From NCBI RefSeq assembly GCF_947487605.1, contig NZ_CANKXK010000011.1, positions 47,759 through 111,758 on the forward strand: 64,000 nt of DNA, written 5' to 3'. Position numbers and translations under genes: made by a program. The notes beneath the pieces were generated by a model that saw only the letters and a program-made list of their open reading frames with translations, was not told the origin of the DNA and made no database searches. The first letter of the stretch is position 1; every line of letters starts with the position of its first letter. The stretch is from an uncultured Algibacter sp. GTDB taxonomy: Bacteria; Bacteroidota; Bacteroidia; Flavobacteriales; Flavobacteriaceae. Below are positions 7,238-58,580 of this stretch, piece after piece.

Positions 7238-7421
7238 TTTTAAAATAATTTGATTTCAAAAATACAACTTAAGAAAATTTTACATAGCTTTGACCTTTCA
7301 AAAGAAATAAAAATGCGTTGTAACGTCACAATTTATAGAAAGCAATGGACCTCTTGTTTAAAAACAAGTAGTTGGGCTTATAATATATTGTGGTGATATG
7401 AATATAAAATATTACAATATT

Positions 7422-7455
7422 AAAAAGTCCGACTTCGCAGTCGGACTTTTTTTTT
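7422..7455 (+). terminator. strong intrinsic terminator with no annotated gene upstream (orphan)
   Basis: GTCCGACT (7427-7434), loop TCGC, AGTCGGAC (7439-7446), followed by nine T. The flanking genes are divergent (DUF1684 on minus, MFS on plus), so it does not terminate either. Confidence 0.7.
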
Positions 7456-7497
7456 ACCAATTCAAATAAAATTCAAATATGTAGAAAACTAGAACTC

Positions 7498-8748
7498 ATG
7501 AACAAATTATTTAATAATTACCTAAATACCTTTAAAGGCCTATCGCAAGAAGTATGGTGGCTATCCCTAATAACACTTATAAATAGAGCTGGCACCATGG
7601 TAATTCCTTTTTTGTCCTTATACTTAAGAGAAAGTCTAAATTTCTCTTTTACTGATGTAGGCTGGGTAATGAGTGCTTTTGGATTAGGTTCTGTTATTGG
7701 GTCATGGCTAGGCGGTAAACTAACCGACAAAATAGGCTATTACAAAGTAATGGTTTACAGCTTGTTAGGAACAGGTGTCTTATTTATAACTTTACAATAT
7801 TTAACAACTTTTTCTGGATTTTGCTTTGGCATATTTCTGGTAATGTTGGTGGCAGATATGTTTCGTCCCGCCATGTTCGTGGCGCTGAGTGCATACAGTA
7901 AACCAGAAAATAAAACACGTAGTGTAACGCTAATTAGGTTAGCTATAAATCTTGGGTTTTCGGCAGGACCAGCTATTGGTGGGCTAATTATTACTACATT
8001 AAGTTATGGTGGGTTATTTTGGGTTGATGGTATTACTTGTATCGCTGCTACTGCTGTACTTATTAATGTTTTAAACCCAAAAACAACTAAAACTTTAGAT
8101 AATGTTAAAACTGAAAATCCTAAATCGGCTTATGGAGACAAAGCCTTTTTAATCTTTTTGGTTGCCATGGTACTTTTTGGAATTGTATTCCTGCAATATT
8201 TTTCTACCATGCCATTATACTATAAAGACGTACATGCTTTAACCGAATTTGAAATAGGTGTCCTTTTAGGAATGAACGGATTTATAATTTTTGCACTAGA
8301 AATGCCATTAATAAAATGGTTAGAAAATACCACGTTTACAAAATCTGGATTAATGCTTTTTGGAGCTATCTTAACCGGTTTAAGTTTTTTAATATTAAAC
8401 ATGTCTAATTGGGCAGGTGTTTTAATATTTGGTATGCTCTTGATGACTTTTGGTGAAATGATAGCCTTTCCTTTTTCTAATGCTTTTGCAATGGATAGAG
8501 CTAAAAAAGGAAATCAGGGAGAATATATGGCTCTTTATTCTATTTCATTTTCTATAGCACATATCTTTGGACATAATGCTGGTATGCGAATGGTAGATAA
8601 TCTAGGATTTGATAACACTTGGTATATTGTAACAATACTTGCTGCACTTTGTGTATTTTTATTATTTATTTTAAATCAGTATTTAAATATTAAGAAAAAA
8701 CAAAAAATGAAAGATATAGAAGAAGAAAAAGAAATTTTATGGATTTAA
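7498..8748 (+). CDS. MFS transporter
   Basis: 416 aa, about 12 TM helices, MFS-type loop motifs (GGKLTDKIGY). Confidence 0.8.
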   Translation: MNKLFNNYLNTFKGLSQEVWWLSLITLINRAGTMVIPFLSLYLRESLNFSFTDVGWVMSAFGLGSVIGSWLGGKLTDKIGYYKVMVYSLLGTGVLFITLQYLTTFSGFCFGIFLVMLVADMFRPAMFVALSAYSKPENKTRSVTLIRLAINLGFSAGPAIGGLIITTLSYGGLFWVDGITCIAATAVLINVLNPKTTKTLDNVKTENPKSAYGDKAFLIFLVAMVLFGIVFLQYFSTMPLYYKDVHALTEFEIGVLLGMNGFIIFALEMPLIKWLENTTFTKSGLMLFGAILTGLSFLILNMSNWAGVLIFGMLLMTFGEMIAFPFSNAFAMDRAKKGNQGEYMALYSISFSIAHIFGHNAGMRMVDNLGFDNTWYIVTILAALCVFLLFILNQYLNIKKKQKMKDIEEEKEILWI

Positions 8749-49739: not shown

Positions 49740-50213
49740 TTAAATAAATAGTAGCTGACAGCCTTCTTGATCTGCTCTACTATAAAAATCTCCTATGGTT
49801 AGTATGCCATCTAATTCATCAATTAAATCTTCATCTTTTAAATGAAACATATCTACCGCCAATTTACATGCCCAGAGCTTACAACCTGAGTCTGAAAGAA
49901 TTTCTAAAAACTCACCTACAGGTGGCATGTCTAATTTTTCCATTTCTTTTTTCATCATTTTTGTAGCTAAAGCTTCCATTCCTGGTAAACCGCCTAACAT
50001 GGTTGGTATGTGCATCCCTGGATTACCTACTGTGGCTACATGTAAATGTTCTAGCTTTTTCTTTTGAATAGCTTCCAGTCCAAAAAAAGTAAAAAATATT
50101 TCGGATTCTATCCCTTCCATTCTTGCACCGTTGGCCATTACAAATGCAGCATATGCATTTTCTATAGTTGCTTTTGATAAGATGAAAAGCATTTTTTTAA
50201 CTTTTGTGCCCAT
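49740..50213 (-). CDS. DsrE/DsrF/DrsH-like sulfur-relay family protein
   Basis: 157 aa. Rossmann-like DsrE fold pattern (LFILSKATIENAYAAFVMANGA) with conserved Cys in KLWACKLA. Last gene of the sqr operon. Confidence 0.75.
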   Translation of the reverse strand: MGTKVKKMLFILSKATIENAYAAFVMANGARMEGIESEIFFTFFGLEAIQKKKLEHLHVATVGNPGMHIPTMLGGLPGMEALATKMMKKEMEKLDMPPVGEFLEILSDSGCKLWACKLAVDMFHLKDEDLIDELDGILTIGDFYSRADQEGCQLLFI

Positions 50214-50251
50214 AATTATATGTTTTAAATTAGTCTTTCGTATTTATTAAA

Positions 50252-50560
50252 TTAAATACAACTTTTTGGTTTTGGTACACCAGCAATTTTAGTTGAAATT
50301 TTTAATGGCCCTTTAGGAAAGAGTGCATAGAATTCTTTGATGTCTAATACACCACTTTTTTTAATACCTCTAATAGATAAGGCTACGTCATTTTTTACTT
50401 GCTCTTGAAGCCAAGAAACCACTTCCCAATGCCTATCTGTCATTTCAATACCTTCATTCTTAGCTATCTCAAGTCCAATGTCTTTATTCCATTGAGATAC
50501 GTCTGTTAAATATCCGTCTTCCGTGACGTCTAATCTAATTCCTGCAATATTTAAATCCAT
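50252..50560 (-). CDS. TusE/DsrC/DsvC-family sulfur-relay protein (single C-terminal Cys, TusE type)
   Basis: 102 aa. GYL.D...W, HWEVV..LQ, and C-terminal GVPKPKSCI with the penultimate Cys. No second Cys 10 residues upstream. Confidence 0.8.
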   Translation of the reverse strand: MDLNIAGIRLDVTEDGYLTDVSQWNKDIGLEIAKNEGIEMTDRHWEVVSWLQEQVKNDVALSIRGIKKSGVLDIKEFYALFPKGPLKISTKIAGVPKPKSCI

Positions 50561-50577
50561 AATATTTAGTGTTTTAA

Positions 50578-51822
50578 TTAATTCCTTTTTATATCAAATA
50601 TTTTTCCTTTAAAACTCATATTCCTTGAAACAAATGGAATGGCAATACCTTTTAAAAGCATATTCCAATAAATCCATCTAAAAGCCAATTTTCCCCAGTG
50701 ATTAAAAATACTTTCTTTTAATAATTTTAGAGGTCCGATTTTTGGAAAAGGGAAAGTTCCATGTACTGGTTCTGTATTATAATTAAAATCAATAAGTAAA
50801 GCCTTGTTATTTCCGGTCTCTATAAAGCAGTTTGCATGTCCATCAAATTCTTCTTTTAAGGTATATCCTTTTATATATAAAAGAATGTTATCGGTTAAAG
50901 TTTCAGCTTGAAAGTGTGCTACAGATCCTGCTTTAGAAGCTGGCACATTGGTCGCATCACCAATTACAAATATGTTTTCGTGTTCTATAGATTGTAAGGT
51001 ATGCTTATGTGTTGGAATAAAGTTTAAATCATCTCCCAAACCAGAGCGTTCAATAAGCTCATCACCCATATTTGTGGGAACTGTTACTAATAAATCAAAC
51101 GGGATTGTTTTATCTCCGTAATCAACAATTTCTTTTTTTTCATTGTCTACTCTTTCTATTGCAAAATCAGCTTCCATATGGATTCCTTTTTCAGATAAAA
51201 GATAGCTTAATGATTTAGAGCAGGTAGGCTTTGTGAAAGCCCCAGACAAAGGCGTAACATAAGTAATTTCTACTTTATCTCTCATGCCTTTTTTAGTAAA
51301 ATAAGAATCAGCCAAAAACGCAAATTCTAAAGGTGCTACTGGGCATTTAATAGGCATTTCTGTTATGTGTATAACCAGTTTCCCACCATCCCATTCACGC
51401 AATTTATTTCGTAATGCTAAAGCACCTTCAAACGTGTAAAAATCGAATATATCTTTTTTCCATAGTGGTCCTAATAAACCTTCGGTTTCCTCTGGTACAA
51501 TTTTAGATCCTGTAGCAATAATTAATAGGTCATAATCTAAGGTTTCATCCTCAAGAACGACTTGATTATCTACTGGTAAAATTTTATCTATTTTTTTTTG
51601 AATATAATTAACGCCTTTGGGAATAAACTTTTTACCAACTTTTTTTACTTGATCTTCTGTATAGGTATCAAATGGAAGAAATAAAAACCCTGGTTGATAA
51701 TAATGTGTTTTATATTGATCGATAATTGTAATGCTCCAATCTTTTTTTGGGAGTTTAGAAACCAAATGATTTGCCATCATAGTTCCAGAAGTTCCAGCCC
51801 CTAATATTATTAAATTTTTCAT
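50578..51822 (-). CDS. sqr: sulfide:quinone oxidoreductase-like FAD-dependent pyridine nucleotide-disulfide oxidoreductase
   Basis: 414 aa. GAGTSGT dinucleotide fold. Candidate redox Cys in IKCPVAPLEF (C160) and HANCFIE (C332). VIGDATN. Amphipathic C-terminal tail. Confidence 0.75.
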   Translation of the reverse strand: MKNLIILGAGTSGTMMANHLVSKLPKKDWSITIIDQYKTHYYQPGFLFLPFDTYTEDQVKKVGKKFIPKGVNYIQKKIDKILPVDNQVVLEDETLDYDLLIIATGSKIVPEETEGLLGPLWKKDIFDFYTFEGALALRNKLREWDGGKLVIHITEMPIKCPVAPLEFAFLADSYFTKKGMRDKVEITYVTPLSGAFTKPTCSKSLSYLLSEKGIHMEADFAIERVDNEKKEIVDYGDKTIPFDLLVTVPTNMGDELIERSGLGDDLNFIPTHKHTLQSIEHENIFVIGDATNVPASKAGSVAHFQAETLTDNILLYIKGYTLKEEFDGHANCFIETGNNKALLIDFNYNTEPVHGTFPFPKIGPLKLLKESIFNHWGKLAFRWIYWNMLLKGIAIPFVSRNMSFKGKIFDIKRN

Positions 51823-51906
51823 TTTATTTAATTTTAAACTTCCTATTAAAATTTCTAGAGTAGTTTATTTCTTTGGTAAAAGTAAACGAATTAGCATATA
51901 AATAAT

Positions 51907-51920
51907 ATGACAAAAATCAT
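51907..51920. promoter_or_regulatory. CRP-like palindrome ATGACAAAAATCAT, site 2, upstream of sqr
   Basis: Same 14-mer as site 1. Its centre lies 29.5 nt from a minus-strand near-consensus -7 box TACTTTTA (51884-51877), the same geometry as site 3. Confidence 0.5.
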
Positions 51921-51930
51921 GTAAACCCTT

Positions 51931-51948
51931 GTGTAACAAAGGTTACAC
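51931..51948. promoter_or_regulatory. perfect palindrome GTGTAAC-AAAG-GTTACAC
   Basis: Read directly. 10 nt from site 2. GTAAC-N4-GTTAC recurs at 54386-54399. Confidence 0.45.
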
Positions 51949-51991
51949 GGGTAATAAAATAACAATGACCCTCAAAATAAAATATAAAAAG

Positions 51992-52003
51992 TGATAATTA
52001 TCA
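51992..52003. promoter_or_regulatory. perfect 12-bp palindrome TGATAATTATCA (Fur-box-like half-sites)
   Basis: Read directly. Sits 24-35 nt upstream of the candidate -7 box of the FadL-like gene, in the -33 zone. Confidence 0.3.
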
Positions 52004-52026
52004 TAGTTAAAGATACCTTCTAAAAG

Positions 52027-52034
52027 TAGCTTTG
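52027..52034 (+). promoter_or_regulatory. -7 box candidate (TAGCTTTG) for the FadL-like gene
   Basis: Exact TAnnTTTG match 84 nt upstream of the ATG at 52118. Confidence 0.3.
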
Positions 52035-52117
52035 TTTAAATATTAGAAACAATAACATCTTGTAAAAAGAACTAAAAGACAACTATTTTTTTACGATGTT
52101 CTTAAATACTTTTTATT

Positions 52118-53521
52118 ATGAAAACTAAACTAATAAACCTATTATTACTATTATTTTTTTCGCCAGTAGCTTTTTCGCAAGCTGGTCACATTATGCAAGG
52201 TGCAGGAGCCGTAAACATGTCTATGGGGGGAGCTTCAACAGCACAACCACTAGATATTTCTGGAGCTTTACATTGGAACCCTGCTGCCATATCTGCTTTT
52301 AACGACAAAATTATAAAGCTTGATGTTGGTTTATTCTTTTCTTCTCCAGAATTAAGTTCTGGTTTACCTGCTAATATTCTATGGCAACCAGGAGATTTTG
52401 GCCCTGGTTCTCCTGGTGCTCCTCCAGTCTCTGGAATAACTAAAGATGATAGAGGTATGTCTCCAATGCCTGCTTTAGCCATGCTTTGGGGAAAAGAAGA
52501 TAGCAAACATACTTTTGGTGTTTCTGCTTTTGGCATTAGTGGCTTTGGTGTAACATTTCCACAAGACAATAATGCTCCTGTAGACTCACAAGGTAATCCA
52601 AACCCAAATTTTAACCCTATAGGTAATTCTAATCCCATTAATTACCCACAAGCCGCACAGGGGTTTGGACATATAGAATCTGATTACATGTTATTACAAG
52701 TAGGATTATCTTATGCTTATGAAATAACCGATAAGTTCTCTATTGGTATTCAGCCAAATATAGATTATGCTGCATTAGAACTAGCACCTAATCCAACTGC
52801 AAAACCTAATATGTTTGGATATCCAAACACAGATAGTGCAACAGCTATTGGTTTTGGTGCTCAATTTGGAGTGTTCTATGATTCAGGATTAGGATTAAAA
52901 CTAGGAGCATCCTATAAAACAGCACAAAAATTTAGTGAATTTGAATTCGATAATACATATCCAGACAATACCACTGCTAAAAATAAATTCCAAATGGATT
53001 ATCCTGCTATTTTCTCTCTTGGATTGGGATATTCACAAGGAGATATTGATTTAGCGCTAGATTTTAGACGTGTTGATTATGAAAATACAGATGGTTTTGC
53101 TGAAACAGGTTGGACAATAGATCAAAACATGTTACCTTCTGTAGCTGGATTTGGGTGGGAGAATATATCCATTATCTCTGCAGGGTTACAGTATAAAGGC
53201 ATTGCTAAATTACCTCTTCGTTTTGGCTATACTTACAGTTCTAACCCTATTCCAGAGGATATTGCGTTTTTTAATGTTCCTGCCACAGCAATTATTAAAA
53301 ATGCTTACCAATTTGGTTTAAGTTATAAGGTAAATAAAACTTGGAACATTGATGCCGTTTACCATTATGGAGATAGTAACGGAGCGACCGAAGGTCCATT
53401 ATTAAACCCTCGTAATATTTCTTCAGGAAATCCTACAGGAGCTGTTTCAGGGTCGTTTGTATCTTACGATATGACAACCTCAATGATACAATTTGGTATT
53501 AGTTATACATTTAACAAATAA
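52118..53521 (+). CDS. OMPP1/FadL/TodX-family outer-membrane transport protein
   Basis: 467 aa. Signal peptide. N-terminal GAGAVNMSMGGASTA hatch-like segment, alternating beta-strands, terminal YTF. Confidence 0.75.
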   Translation: MKTKLINLLLLLFFSPVAFSQAGHIMQGAGAVNMSMGGASTAQPLDISGALHWNPAAISAFNDKIIKLDVGLFFSSPELSSGLPANILWQPGDFGPGSPGAPPVSGITKDDRGMSPMPALAMLWGKEDSKHTFGVSAFGISGFGVTFPQDNNAPVDSQGNPNPNFNPIGNSNPINYPQAAQGFGHIESDYMLLQVGLSYAYEITDKFSIGIQPNIDYAALELAPNPTAKPNMFGYPNTDSATAIGFGAQFGVFYDSGLGLKLGASYKTAQKFSEFEFDNTYPDNTTAKNKFQMDYPAIFSLGLGYSQGDIDLALDFRRVDYENTDGFAETGWTIDQNMLPSVAGFGWENISIISAGLQYKGIAKLPLRFGYTYSSNPIPEDIAFFNVPATAIIKNAYQFGLSYKVNKTWNIDAVYHYGDSNGATEGPLLNPRNISSGNPTGAVSGSFVSYDMTTSMIQFGISYTFNK

Positions 53522-54669: not shown

Positions 54670-55299
54670 ATGACTAATGAAATATTACATCAAAAATTTA
54701 ATCATACCCTCGATAGCAATCTTTTAAATGAAATTGCAAATGTTGGTACGTATAAATCTTTTTTAAAAGATGATATAATTATAGATATTGATCAACCATT
54801 AGAAAATATACCACTCTTATTAAGTGGCCATATTAAAATACTAAGAGAAGATGACCAAGGAAATGATTTACTTATTTATTTCTTAGAAGCTGGTGAAACT
54901 TGCACCATGTCACTTACTTGCTGTATGGGGACATCAAAAAGTAAAATAAGAGCCGTTGCAGAGCAAGATTCTAGCCTCGTTATGATACCTGTACAAAAGA
55001 TGCAAGAATGGTTTCATAATAATGAGAGTTGGCGTAACTTTATTTTGAGTAGTTATCAGATTCGTTTTGATGAAATGCTTGATGCTATTGATAGTATTGC
55101 GTTTTTAAAAATGGATGAGCGTTTACACAAATACCTAGTCAACAAAACGGTACTAAATAGCTCTAATACTATTTTAATGAAGCACCAAGATATTGCTGAA
55201 GATTTACATACTTCTCGAGTTGTTATATCAAGACTTCTTAAGCAACTTGAAAACGAGAATAAAATAAATCTTGGCAGAAATAAAATCGTGGTTTTATAA
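54670..55299 (+). CDS. Crp/Fnr-family transcriptional regulator with a three-Cys cluster in the effector domain
   Basis: 209 aa. cNMP-binding-like beta-barrel and C-terminal HTH (HQDIAEDLHTSRVVISRLLKQL). Its only cysteines are C78, C84 and C85 (GETCTMSLTCCMG). Confidence 0.88.
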   Translation: MTNEILHQKFNHTLDSNLLNEIANVGTYKSFLKDDIIIDIDQPLENIPLLLSGHIKILREDDQGNDLLIYFLEAGETCTMSLTCCMGTSKSKIRAVAEQDSSLVMIPVQKMQEWFHNNESWRNFILSSYQIRFDEMLDAIDSIAFLKMDERLHKYLVNKTVLNSSNTILMKHQDIAEDLHTSRVVISRLLKQLENENKINLGRNKIVVL

Positions 55300-56308: not shown

Positions 56309-57100
56309 ATGGATAACACCCAACTATTTGGATATATTGGTGCGTTAATAGTAGGATTAGTACTAGGATTAATTGGAGGAGGCGGATCCATCTTAACAGT
56401 GCCTATATTGGTGTACTTACTAGGCTATAATCCAATAGTTGCTACTGCCTATTCTCTATTTGTTGTTGGCACTACATCCATGGTTGGCACGTTTCAGAAA
56501 TACAAAAAAGGGTTGGTAGACTTTAAAACGGGTTTTGCTTTTTCTTTTCCATCGTTTATAGCAGTTTATCTTTCGCGAAGATATTTGGTACCTAATATTC
56601 CTGATAGACTTTTTAATATTGATGATTTTACATTTACTAAAGAAATGGGAATTATGATCTTTTTTGCAATCATAATGATTATAGCGTCCTATTCTATGAT
56701 TAAAAATAAAACAGACAATAGTTCACTAAAAGAAAAGCAAGCATATTACAAAACTTTTATTCAAGCAATAGTTATAGGAACAATTACAGGATTTATAGGC
56801 GCAGGAGGTGGATTTTTATATGTACCAGCACTTGTAATTTGGGCAAATATTCCAATGAAAAAAGCAGTTGGCACATCATTAATAATAGTTACCATCAACT
56901 CATTAATTGGTTTTATTGGCGATATTCAAACCTTAGAGATAGATTGGGTATTCCTTTTATCGTTTACACTAATATCTATAGTTGGCATTATTTTGGGTGT
57001 ATTTCTGTCAAAATTTATTAGTGGTAAAAAACTTAAAAAAAGTTTTGGATTTTTCACTTTAATAATGGCTGTTTATATTATATATAAAGAAACCAATTAA
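56309..57100 (+). CDS. TauE/SafE-family sulfite/organosulfonate exporter
   Basis: 263 aa. Two internal repeats with GGGGSILTVP and GAGGGFLYVP motifs. Confidence 0.85.
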   Translation: MDNTQLFGYIGALIVGLVLGLIGGGGSILTVPILVYLLGYNPIVATAYSLFVVGTTSMVGTFQKYKKGLVDFKTGFAFSFPSFIAVYLSRRYLVPNIPDRLFNIDDFTFTKEMGIMIFFAIIMIIASYSMIKNKTDNSSLKEKQAYYKTFIQAIVIGTITGFIGAGGGFLYVPALVIWANIPMKKAVGTSLIIVTINSLIGFIGDIQTLEIDWVFLLSFTLISIVGIILGVFLSKFISGKKLKKSFGFFTLIMAVYIIYKETN

Positions 57101-57167: not shown

Positions 57168-58580
57168 ATGAAAATAGAGCAAATATATACAGGCTGTTTA
57201 GCACAAGGTGCTTATTACATAGAATCTAATGGAGAAGTTGCGATAATTGATCCGCTTCGTGAAACCCAACAATATGTAGATAAAGCCAATAGAGAAAATG
57301 CAAAAATTAAATATATTTTTGAAACACATTTTCATGCCGATTTTGTTTCTGGTCACGTAGATTTAGCAAAAAAAACTGGTGCTATAATTGTTTATGGGCC
57401 AGGGGCAGAAACCAATTACGATATACATTGTGCTAAGGATGAAGAAAAATTTAAATTAGGAAATATTACTATAAAAGTTTTACACACACCGGGACATACA
57501 TTAGAGTCTTCTACTTACCTATTAATTGATAAATCTGGAAAAGATTATGCTATTTTTTCTGGAGACACTTTGTTTTTAGGCGATGTTGGAAGGCCCGATT
57601 TAGCCATAAAGTCTGACCTAACAAAAGAAGATTTAGCAGGAATGCTCTACGATTCGCTTAGGAATAAAATAATGCCATTAGCAGACGATGTTATTGTTTA
57701 TCCCGCTCATGGTGCTGGTTCTGCATGCGGAAAAAATTTGAGCAAAGAAACCATTGGAATTTTAGGTGATGAGAAAAAAACAAATTACGCATTAAGAGCA
57801 GATATGACCAAAGCAGAATTTATTGAAGAAGTTCTTGATGGCATAGCGCCACCACCACAGTATTTTGCAAAAAATGCGATGATGAATAAATCTGGGTATG
57901 ATACTTTTGAAACAGTTTTAAAAAAGGGAGACAATGCGTTAACCCCTGAAGCCTTTGAACATTTAGCAAACGAAGGAAATGCTTTAGTGCTGGATGTAAG
58001 ACATGAAAAAGATTTTATAAAGGGCCATATTCCAAACTCCATTTTTATTGGCATCCATGGTGGGTTTGCACCTTGGGTAGGTGCTTTAATTACAGACTTA
58101 AAACAACCTATTTTATTAGTAGCTCCAGAAGGTAAAGCAAAAGAAACTGTTACTAGATTATCTCGTGTAGGGTATGATAACACACTTGGCTATTTAGAAG
58201 GCGGTATTGAAGCTTGGGTAGCTTCTGGAAGAGATATAGAAACTTTAGACTCTATTTCGGTTAACACCTTTAAGAATGTGTTTAAGGACAAAAGCATTCA
58301 TGTTTTAGATGTTAGAAAAGATGGTGAATACAAATCGGAACATTTAGATGGAAATTCTGTGCAGCACTTTGCTTTAGATTATATAAATGATAACATGAAT
58401 AAAATTGATGTAAGGAAAACATATTACATTCATTGTGCAGGTGGTTATCGATCTGTAATTGCAGCTTCTATACTTAAAGCTCGTGGCTTTAAGAACTTAA
58501 TAGATGTCGCAGGTGGTTTTGGAGCCATGAAAAAAACAGATTTACCAACTACAGAGTTTGTTTGCCCTTCAACTTTATAA
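57168..58580 (+). CDS. CstB-like persulfide dioxygenase (MBL fold) fused to a pseudo-rhodanese and an active rhodanese domain
   Basis: 470 aa. THFHADFVSGH metal motif. The middle rhodanese-like domain lacks a catalytic Cys. The C-terminal domain has HCAGGYRS. Confidence 0.82.
   Translation: MKIEQIYTGCLAQGAYYIESNGEVAIIDPLRETQQYVDKANRENAKIKYIFETHFHADFVSGHVDLAKKTGAIIVYGPGAETNYDIHCAKDEEKFKLGNITIKVLHTPGHTLESSTYLLIDKSGKDYAIFSGDTLFLGDVGRPDLAIKSDLTKEDLAGMLYDSLRNKIMPLADDVIVYPAHGAGSACGKNLSKETIGILGDEKKTNYALRADMTKAEFIEEVLDGIAPPPQYFAKNAMMNKSGYDTFETVLKKGDNALTPEAFEHLANEGNALVLDVRHEKDFIKGHIPNSIFIGIHGGFAPWVGALITDLKQPILLVAPEGKAKETVTRLSRVGYDNTLGYLEGGIEAWVASGRDIETLDSISVNTFKNVFKDKSIHVLDVRKDGEYKSEHLDGNSVQHFALDYINDNMNKIDVRKTYYIHCAGGYRSVIAASILKARGFKNLIDVAGGFGAMKKTDLPTTEFVCPSTL

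Follow-up and report, generated by a model that had tools for sequence, protein, structure and literature searches.

The subject of this analysis is a 64,000-nucleotide stretch of DNA, here called the window, from an uncultured Algibacter sp. of the Flavobacteriaceae (assembly GCF_947487605.1, contig NZ_CANKXK010000011.1, positions 47,759 to 111,758 of the forward strand). On its minus strand it carries three closely spaced genes encoding a sulfide:quinone oxidoreductase (SQR) of type III, a small carrier of the DsrC/TusE family with a single cysteine, and a DsrE-like protein. The trio is read here as a self-contained module for sulfide oxidation and sulfur capture, which would operate at the cytoplasmic face of the inner membrane and in which sulfur would be handed from SQR to the carriers; the probability of this reading is put at roughly two in three. 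The elements of the locus are as follows, in the direction in which the trio is read.

51823..52117, no strand: intergenic divergent control region between sqr and a FadL-like gene
50578..51822, minus strand: type III SQR gene (sqr), open reading frame (ORF) of 414 amino acids (aa)
50561..50577, minus strand: gap of 17 nucleotides (nt) between sqr and the TusE-type gene
50252..50560, minus strand: DsrC/TusE-family carrier gene, ORF of 102 aa
50214..50251, minus strand: gap of 38 nt between the TusE-type and DsrE-like genes
49740..50213, minus strand: DsrE-like (DrsE_2) gene, ORF of 157 aa

An earlier reading made from the letters of the DNA (the sequence-only reading) had placed the three genes on one strand with gaps of 17 and 38 nt, and the ORF list gives identical coordinates. 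The 17-nt gap is too short for the TusE-type gene to have an independent promoter, and from the gap lengths only we infer that all three genes are co-transcribed as one operon, the sqr promoter presumably lying within the divergent control region. A scan for sigma-70 promoters and terminators, which is unsuited to Bacteroidota promoters, found no terminator, and the number of its sites was below that in shuffled sequence. A signal peptide or transmembrane helix was found in none of the three proteins, so that all three should meet on the cytoplasmic side.

The 414-aa protein is by its sequence a type III SQR with predicted activity. It scores 648.3 bits against the NCBIfam model NF049943, named 'type III sulfide quinone reductase, selenoprotein subtype' (cut-off 525; model positions 1-405 of 406 covered), and also matches PF07992. 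The Rossmann motif for flavin adenine dinucleotide (FAD), GAGTSG, lies at the extreme N-terminus, and the catalytic pair is Cys160 (MPIKCPVAP) and Cys332 (GHANCFIETG), which by numbering correspond to the canonical type III pair, published as Cys159/Cys331 and Cys159/Cys339 (PMC10989961, PMC13047784). Both residues are invariant in 79 of 79 Flavobacteriia relatives and are kept in the other phyla examined. Since the ORF is uninterrupted and has cysteine at both catalytic positions, the window enzyme is the cysteine form of the family and not a selenoprotein. Among solved structures, that of the type II enzyme human SQOR comes closest (1e-42). The maximum 19-residue hydropathy of the protein is 1.1, and the lack of a signal peptide and of a transmembrane helix points to a peripheral protein on the cytoplasmic side.

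Some variation was noted among the wider SQR relatives. Eight representatives (P0133, P0137, P0150, P0151, P0152, P0168, P0193 and P0217) have Gly or Trp in at least one catalytic cysteine column, which is what gene calling under code 25 or code 4 makes of an in-frame TGA; these may be the selenocysteine-containing enzymes to which the name of the family alludes. The cluster representative P0128 (568 aa) is a type III SQR with a C-terminal pair of CBS domains and no TusE domain, which suggests that a nucleotide or ligand controls SQR in some lineage. In Actinomycetota many of the type III SQRs, at 490-540 aa, exceed that of the window by about 80-125 aa without any recognised extra domain, and separate TusE-type and DrsE_2 genes still follow them (e.g., L082, 5001-6482).

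The 102-aa protein belongs to the DsrC/TusE family, with matches to PF04358 (7e-26, 91.2 bits, cut-off 24.9) and TIGR03342 (80.8 bits, cut-off 53.5), and falls below the cut-off of the TusE equivalog NF008562 (65.7 bits against 191). Its sole cysteine is the penultimate residue, Cys101, in the C-terminal arm IAGVPKPKSCI. The CysB position of DsrC, 11 residues before the penultimate cysteine, is held by Thr in alignment to 2xsj and 1sau, and by Ser, Ala or Thr in all relatives examined. DsrC structures are matched at 1e-15, and 7syb, whose chain is labelled 'Sulfurtransferase' and which we take to be a TusE-type protein, at 3e-8. The label 'TusE-type' given by the sequence-only reading is therefore apt for the cysteine pattern, a single penultimate cysteine, and is kept here in that sense; it does not extend to TusE proper, as the equivalog is failed and the DsrC structures are nearer. 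Two closer identities were tried and rejected, namely, a TusE of tRNA thiolation, on the failed equivalog cut-off and the lack of tus genes nearby, and DsrC proper, on the lack of CysB and of dsrAB nearby. The penultimate cysteine is invariant in 78 of 78 relatives and is kept across the other phyla examined, where the arm I-A-G-x-x-K-P-x-x-C is invariant in the cross-phylum alignment.

The 157-aa protein matches PF13686 (DrsE_2; 2e-32, 112.8 bits, cut-off 25) and stays below the DsrE2 equivalog NF047629 of the Allochromatium vinosum type (101.1 bits against 210). Its Cys116, in KLWACKLAV, aligns with the cysteine of 2QS7 and 3PNX and is invariant in 73 of 73 relatives, as well as being kept across the other phyla examined. 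The nearest solved relative, 2QS7 (8e-12), is the homotrimeric DsrE2B SSO1126 (Liu et al. 2014, PMC4175335), and by analogy the window protein is probably a homotrimer, too. In Tessaracoccus the DrsE_2 protein carries an N-terminal extension of about 45 residues.

The association of the three genes was followed in two directions. A forward search with the SQR as query, limited to one genome per species, gave 585 relatives, and the 80 best loci were analysed; these are from Flavobacteriia or related Bacteroidota with 72-92% SQR identity, the best being that of Algibacter agarivorans (92%). Wherever the contig was long enough (75 of 75 loci), a TusE-type and a DsrE-like gene lie directly downstream on the same strand, with gaps of 5-63 nt between sqr and the TusE-type gene and of 12-80 nt between the TusE-type and DsrE-like genes; the five loci that seem to deviate lie at the ends of contigs. 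The reverse search compared the single TusE-type protein of the window with metagenome contigs and gave 80 loci. Here, SQR is encoded immediately upstream in 78 of 78 informative loci (two are split by frameshifts), and a DsrE-like gene follows the TusE-type gene in 78 of 79, which argues for a TusE-type carrier dedicated to SQR. The DsrE-like gene is absent only in L098 (1061-2836), where unrelated genes on the opposite strand begin right after the TusE stop codon; this locus has about 2x coverage and probably reflects either a chimeric assembly or recently inserted DNA.

Wider diversity was covered with 50%-identity cluster representatives of SQR and with searches seeded with two fusion proteins, which are described below. 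The order SQR-PF04358-PF13686 is found in Marivirga sericea (Cytophagales), in Bacillaceae IKA-2, Desulfitibacter alkalitolerans and a Clostridia metagenome-assembled genome (MAG), in Tessaracoccus and Nocardioides panacihumi, and in Haloferula (Verrucomicrobiota). Altogether, of 9 informative loci belonging to other orders and phyla, 8 have the module; a Desulfurella contig that stops at the SQR gene is not counted among the 9. Across at least four bacterial phyla the trio retains its order, and many hundreds of sequences, the window among them, carry the module. Because it recurs in every long-enough related locus examined and in four phyla, the arrangement is far beyond chance. In a tblastn search of plasmids, only SQR-like genes of at most 34% identity (haloarchaea, Bacillus and others) and no type III trio were found. 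The rest of the sulfur island of the window (Crp, YeeE halves, TauE and a protein combining persulfide dioxygenase (PDO) and rhodanese) almost never adjoins the trio in relatives, which singles out the trio as the conserved unit. The sequence-only reading had tied its proposal to synteny outside this genome and to retention of the putative active cysteines in orthologues. Both are borne out by the counts given above, and the cysteines are likewise kept in Actinomycetota, Bacillota and Verrucomicrobiota.

A further line of evidence comes from natural fusions. Two SQR cluster representatives, P0124 (581 aa) and P0145 (562 aa), bear a C-terminal PF04358 domain ending in GLPKPRGCV and GIPKPVGCI, respectively, and neither has CysB. 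Searches seeded with these two proteins gave dozens of 90%-identity clusters of SQR::TusE fusions, with Corynebacterium lactis, C. hansenii, Propionibacteriaceae, Mobiluncus curtisii, M. porci and Actinomycetaceae among the hosts; in C. hansenii a DrsE_2 gene begins 9 nt after the fusion gene. Such fusions in Actinomycetota are classic evidence for a direct functional link between the joined proteins. Two fusions sharing about 35% identity were modelled with AlphaFold2: the model of the C. hansenii fusion (P0276) has a pLDDT of 85.8, a pTM of 0.85 and a disordered linker of 56 residues (434-489), and that of the M. curtisii fusion (P0391) a pLDDT of 86.6, a pTM of 0.87 and a disordered linker of 29 residues (429-457). 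Only about 75% of each chain is SQR domain, and as the pTM values exceed what this domain alone would give, the arithmetic implies that the TusE domain is confidently docked against SQR in the models. The SQR part of the P0276 model, the only model searched, aligns with human SQOR at a TM-score of 0.89. Taken with the synteny and the invariant cysteines, the fusions strongly support the earlier proposal of a carrier pair dedicated to SQR, and a protein-to-protein hand-off of sulfur from SQR is likely.

Within Flavobacteriia the carrier pair occurs in two subtypes, A and B. The second is present in 19 loci of Lutibacter and others (L005, L008-L013, L016, L018, L020, L022-L027, L046, L062 and L072, at about 7300-8150 in each), in which identity to the window proteins is about 58% for the TusE-type and about 55% for the DsrE-like carrier, and mostly 81-86% for SQR (76% in L062). 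The DsrE-like protein of this subtype has an additional N-terminal CxxC (..KVCxICAKG..) and another cysteine near its C-terminus. TusE-type and DsrE-like proteins change together and independently of SQR, which fits a cognate TusE-DsrE pair whose contact with SQR is chiefly by way of the invariant arm, and the two proteins of the second pair seem to have been swapped in together.

The neighbourhood of the trio in the window includes the following genes.

52118-53521, plus strand: FadL/Toluene_X-like outer-membrane protein gene, divergent from sqr
54670-55299: Crp-type regulator gene, the nearest regulator to the trio, about 3 kb away
56309-57100: TauE gene, candidate exporter
57168..58580, plus strand: CstB-like gene (470 aa), candidate MBL (persulfide-dioxygenase-like) domain plus two rhodanese domains, read by eye

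The CstB-like protein is a plausible sink for carrier-bound sulfane sulfur outside the conserved trio; a homologue is found near the trio in 2 of 80 genome loci, one of these being a rhodanese-only match of 32% identity, and in 1 of 80 metagenome loci. In the window no regulator gene adjoins the trio, and there is no PF02583 gene near it. Elsewhere, regulator genes are found directly upstream of the SQR gene: a CsoR/CstR-type PF02583 gene in Desulfitibacter and the Clostridia MAG (L086, 3720-3983; L089, 3719-3982), an ArsR-type HTH_5 gene in Haloferula (L088, 3663-4004) and an Rrf2 gene in Nitratidesulfovibrio (L084, 3413-3982). The PF02583 and HTH_5 regulators upstream of the trio are of persulfide-sensor types and thereby support the proposed function. 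The Nitratidesulfovibrio SQR gene is followed by one for a PF07849 (HMP) protein (L084, 5256-5957), which may be an alternative partner of SQR.

On this basis, the following course is proposed for the module. SQR would oxidise HS- at Cys160/Cys332, electrons passing via FAD to quinone and the sulfane sulfur remaining on an enzyme cysteine. For type III SQRs this step is established in the literature, oxidation of sulfide with quinone being documented in references cited in PMC10205796; for the window SQR it is predicted. The flexible C-terminal arm of the TusE-type carrier would then reach the SQR active site, where Cys101 would take up the sulfane sulfur in persulfide form. By analogy with DsrEFH-DsrC and TusBCD-TusE, the persulfide would next be exchanged with Cys116 of the DsrE-like protein, in either direction, and this probably trimeric protein would buffer the sulfur or pass it on. 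Finally, and speculatively for this genome, the sulfur might go to a low-molecular-weight thiol or to the rhodanese domains of the CstB-like protein and be oxidised to sulfite or thiosulfate, with TauE as the candidate for export. The net effect would be that the reactive sulfane sulfur made by SQR is kept protein-bound and is not released.

A stronger form of this proposal, which must be regarded as tentative and rather doubtful, is that type III SQRs strictly depend in vivo on a dedicated protein as acceptor, the DsrC-like arm entering the active site, leaving it persulfidated and unloading on the DsrE-like trimer. If so, these SQRs, from hosts that make no use of glutathione (Bacteroidota, Actinomycetota, Bacillota and some Verrucomicrobiota), would be the first for which a protein acceptor is obligatory; the physiological product of sulfide oxidation would be a protein persulfide instead of a polysulfide or small-molecule persulfide, and the actinobacterial fusions would represent the one-polypeptide form of a two-component enzyme.

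Several observations weigh against a hand-off of sulfur from SQR to the carriers. The Caldivirga type III SQR was reportedly active in vitro with only sulfide and quinone (work attributed to Lencina et al. 2013), which would make the carriers unnecessary for basic turnover. The type III SQR of Nitratidesulfovibrio lies in the order Rrf2-SQR-HMP, without carriers. A TusE-type protein of 58% identity behind an SQR of 86% identity means that the contact between the two must be limited; it is perhaps confined to the invariant C-terminal arm. No RNA-seq run for this organism was found among those searched, the best share of sampled words being at most 0.10. Lastly, the nearest characterised relative of the DsrE-like protein, DsrE2B of M. 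cuprina, did not react in vitro with any of six sulfur compounds, and neither TusA nor DsrE3A passed sulfur to it (PMC4175335).

The same inertness of DsrE2B towards free sulfur compounds (PMC4175335) would suit a role in which the carriers merely modulate SQR and stop the leakage of sulfane sulfur, with no directional relay and no defined downstream acceptor. The trio stands alone in most genomes, with no PDO, rhodanese or transporter gene nearby, and the DUF442 domain fused to the Cupriavidus SQR modulates that enzyme and minimises the accumulation of sulfane sulfur (Ran et al. 2022, PMC9163753). Such a guard or buffer is nevertheless an unlikely explanation, as two different, co-varying carriers that always occur together resemble a donor-acceptor pair and not a single cap; it also overlaps heavily with the proposed module, from which it differs only in the fate of the sulfur after capture. 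Alternatively, SQR sulfur might be loaded onto the carriers for assimilation into Fe-S clusters, thiolated tRNA or the molybdenum cofactor. In E. coli, TusE and the TusD/DsrE homologues act in tRNA thiolation, and Corynebacterium and Mobiluncus, which are host-associated, have the trio with no oxidation genes close to it. An assimilatory route is nonetheless quite improbable, given that the carrier fails the TusE equivalog cut-off, that no tusBCD, mnmA, isc or suf genes lie beside the trio in any locus examined, that the regulators adjoining it are of persulfide-stress types, and that the homologous operon of strain SolV is induced by sulfide stress (PMC10205796).

There is least to be said for the idea that the DsrC-like protein is a regulator with a helix-turn-helix (HTH) of the DsrC/RspA type, or that the genes are neighbours for historical reasons without functional coupling. 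The DsrC fold does contain an HTH-like motif, and cysteine-less members of the family have been proposed to be regulatory. Against this, four phyla show no variation in the penultimate cysteine or in the C-terminal arm as a whole, the synteny is near-absolute in both search directions, and the domain is fused to SQR itself in Actinomycetota, which comes close to refuting the idea; the probability left to it is very small. The proposed capture module, with SQR as donor and the two carriers as acceptors, is thus preferred.

Parts of this arrangement are known from other organisms. The group DsrE4 is defined as encoded downstream of SQR, together with TusA (Liu et al. 2014, PMC4175335). As in the DsrE4 loci, where the SQR gene is directly followed by one of the DsrE family and a small single-cysteine carrier is encoded next to it, the DsrE-like gene is found downstream of sqr, as the second gene, in the window and in its relatives, and so has the location by which DsrE4 is defined. 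The DsrE4 loci differ in having TusA, of the PF01206 fold, as the carrier, in their gene order and in their archaeal sulfur-oxidiser host. Another example is the operon MFUM_v2_0219-0221 of Methylacidiphilum fumariolicum SolV, which encodes a type III SQR, a TusA homologue and DsrE2 (Schmitz et al. 2023, PMC10205796); H2S induces its genes together, the log2 fold changes being 0.83, 0.74 and 0.71 (PMC10205796). It shares with the window the SQR type, the organisation as one operon and the order of SQR, small carrier and DsrE-family protein, but its middle gene is described in that paper as TusA-homologous, whereas that of the window is of the DsrC/TusE family.

In the cst operon of Staphylococcus aureus (CstR; tauE, cstA, cstB, sqr) and the yrkD-yrkJ cluster of Bacillus licheniformis, SQR goes along with rhodanese, TusA-type and DsrE-type carriers, a PDO-rhodanese fusion and TauE, the S. 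aureus CstA consisting of fused rhodanese, TusA and DsrE modules (PMC5480029, PMC9918477). The window resembles these systems in having TauE and the CstB-like gene within 7 kb; differences are the type II SQR, the lack of a DsrC/TusE-family carrier and the regulation by CstR in the cst and yrk systems. The SQR of Cupriavidus pinatubonensis is fused to a rhodanese (DUF442), which blocks the direct passage of sulfane sulfur to glutathione and limits its accumulation (PMC9163753). As a sulfurtransferase domain fused to SQR, it is a direct precedent for a protein acceptor at SQR; there, however, the rhodanese is N-terminal and the SQR is of another type, while here the domain is of the DsrC/TusE family and is C-terminal in the fusions, or encoded by a separate gene in the window.

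In the Dsr and Tus relays, too, a DsrE-family protein is paired with one of the DsrC/TusE family, as in the window. TusBCD is a heterohexamer. So is DsrEFH, with the composition DsrE2F2H2, and in both DsrEFH-DsrC of A. vinosum and TusBCD-TusE of E. coli, sulfur is exchanged between the DsrE-family cysteine and the penultimate cysteine (PMC11094781). In contrast to these heterohexameric partners, the window has a single DrsE_2 protein, and its relay would be wired to SQR instead of to DsrAB or MnmA. Its proteins also fail the TusE and DsrE2 equivalog cut-offs and lack the second DsrC cysteine.

The sequence-only reading had spoken of a distinct wiring of these relay modules. As far as the DsrC/TusE type of the carrier is concerned, this may hold, whereas the linkage of SQR with carriers as such has precedents, with TusA in place of the TusE-type protein (PMC4175335, PMC10205796). 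In the full-text literature, in which many subscription papers are not searchable, no description was found of an SQR-linked carrier of the DsrC/TusE family, of a near-absolute linkage of such carriers to type III SQR across four phyla, or of SQR::TusE fusions. The idea of an SQR with carriers is therefore not new; the TusE-type version, its breadth and the fusions appear to be so within the searchable literature.

The in vivo acceptor of the sulfane sulfur from SQR is a matter of debate that has so far centred on glutathione, sulfite and polysulfide, and the trio offers a genetically defined candidate pair of protein acceptors. The module is widespread, occurring in abundant marine heterotrophs of the Flavobacteriia and also in Actinomycetota and Bacillota of soils and hosts; glutathione is absent from many of these bacteria. 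The natural fusions are ready-made constructs for structural and kinetic work. If the transfer takes place, the partnership of DsrE with DsrC/TusE would reach beyond dissimilatory sulfite reductase and tRNA thiolation to the detoxification of sulfide.

A final observation concerns the FadL-like gene, which is divergent from sqr in the window. Such a gene adjoins the trio in about one-quarter of the Flavobacteriia loci, that is, in about 20 of the 80 genome loci (L001-L080) and 18 of the 80 metagenome loci (L091-L170), and in Haloferula it lies directly downstream of the DsrE-like gene (L088, 6303-7589). That it accompanies the trio in two phyla points to a functional connection, such as the passage of hydrophobic sulfur species.

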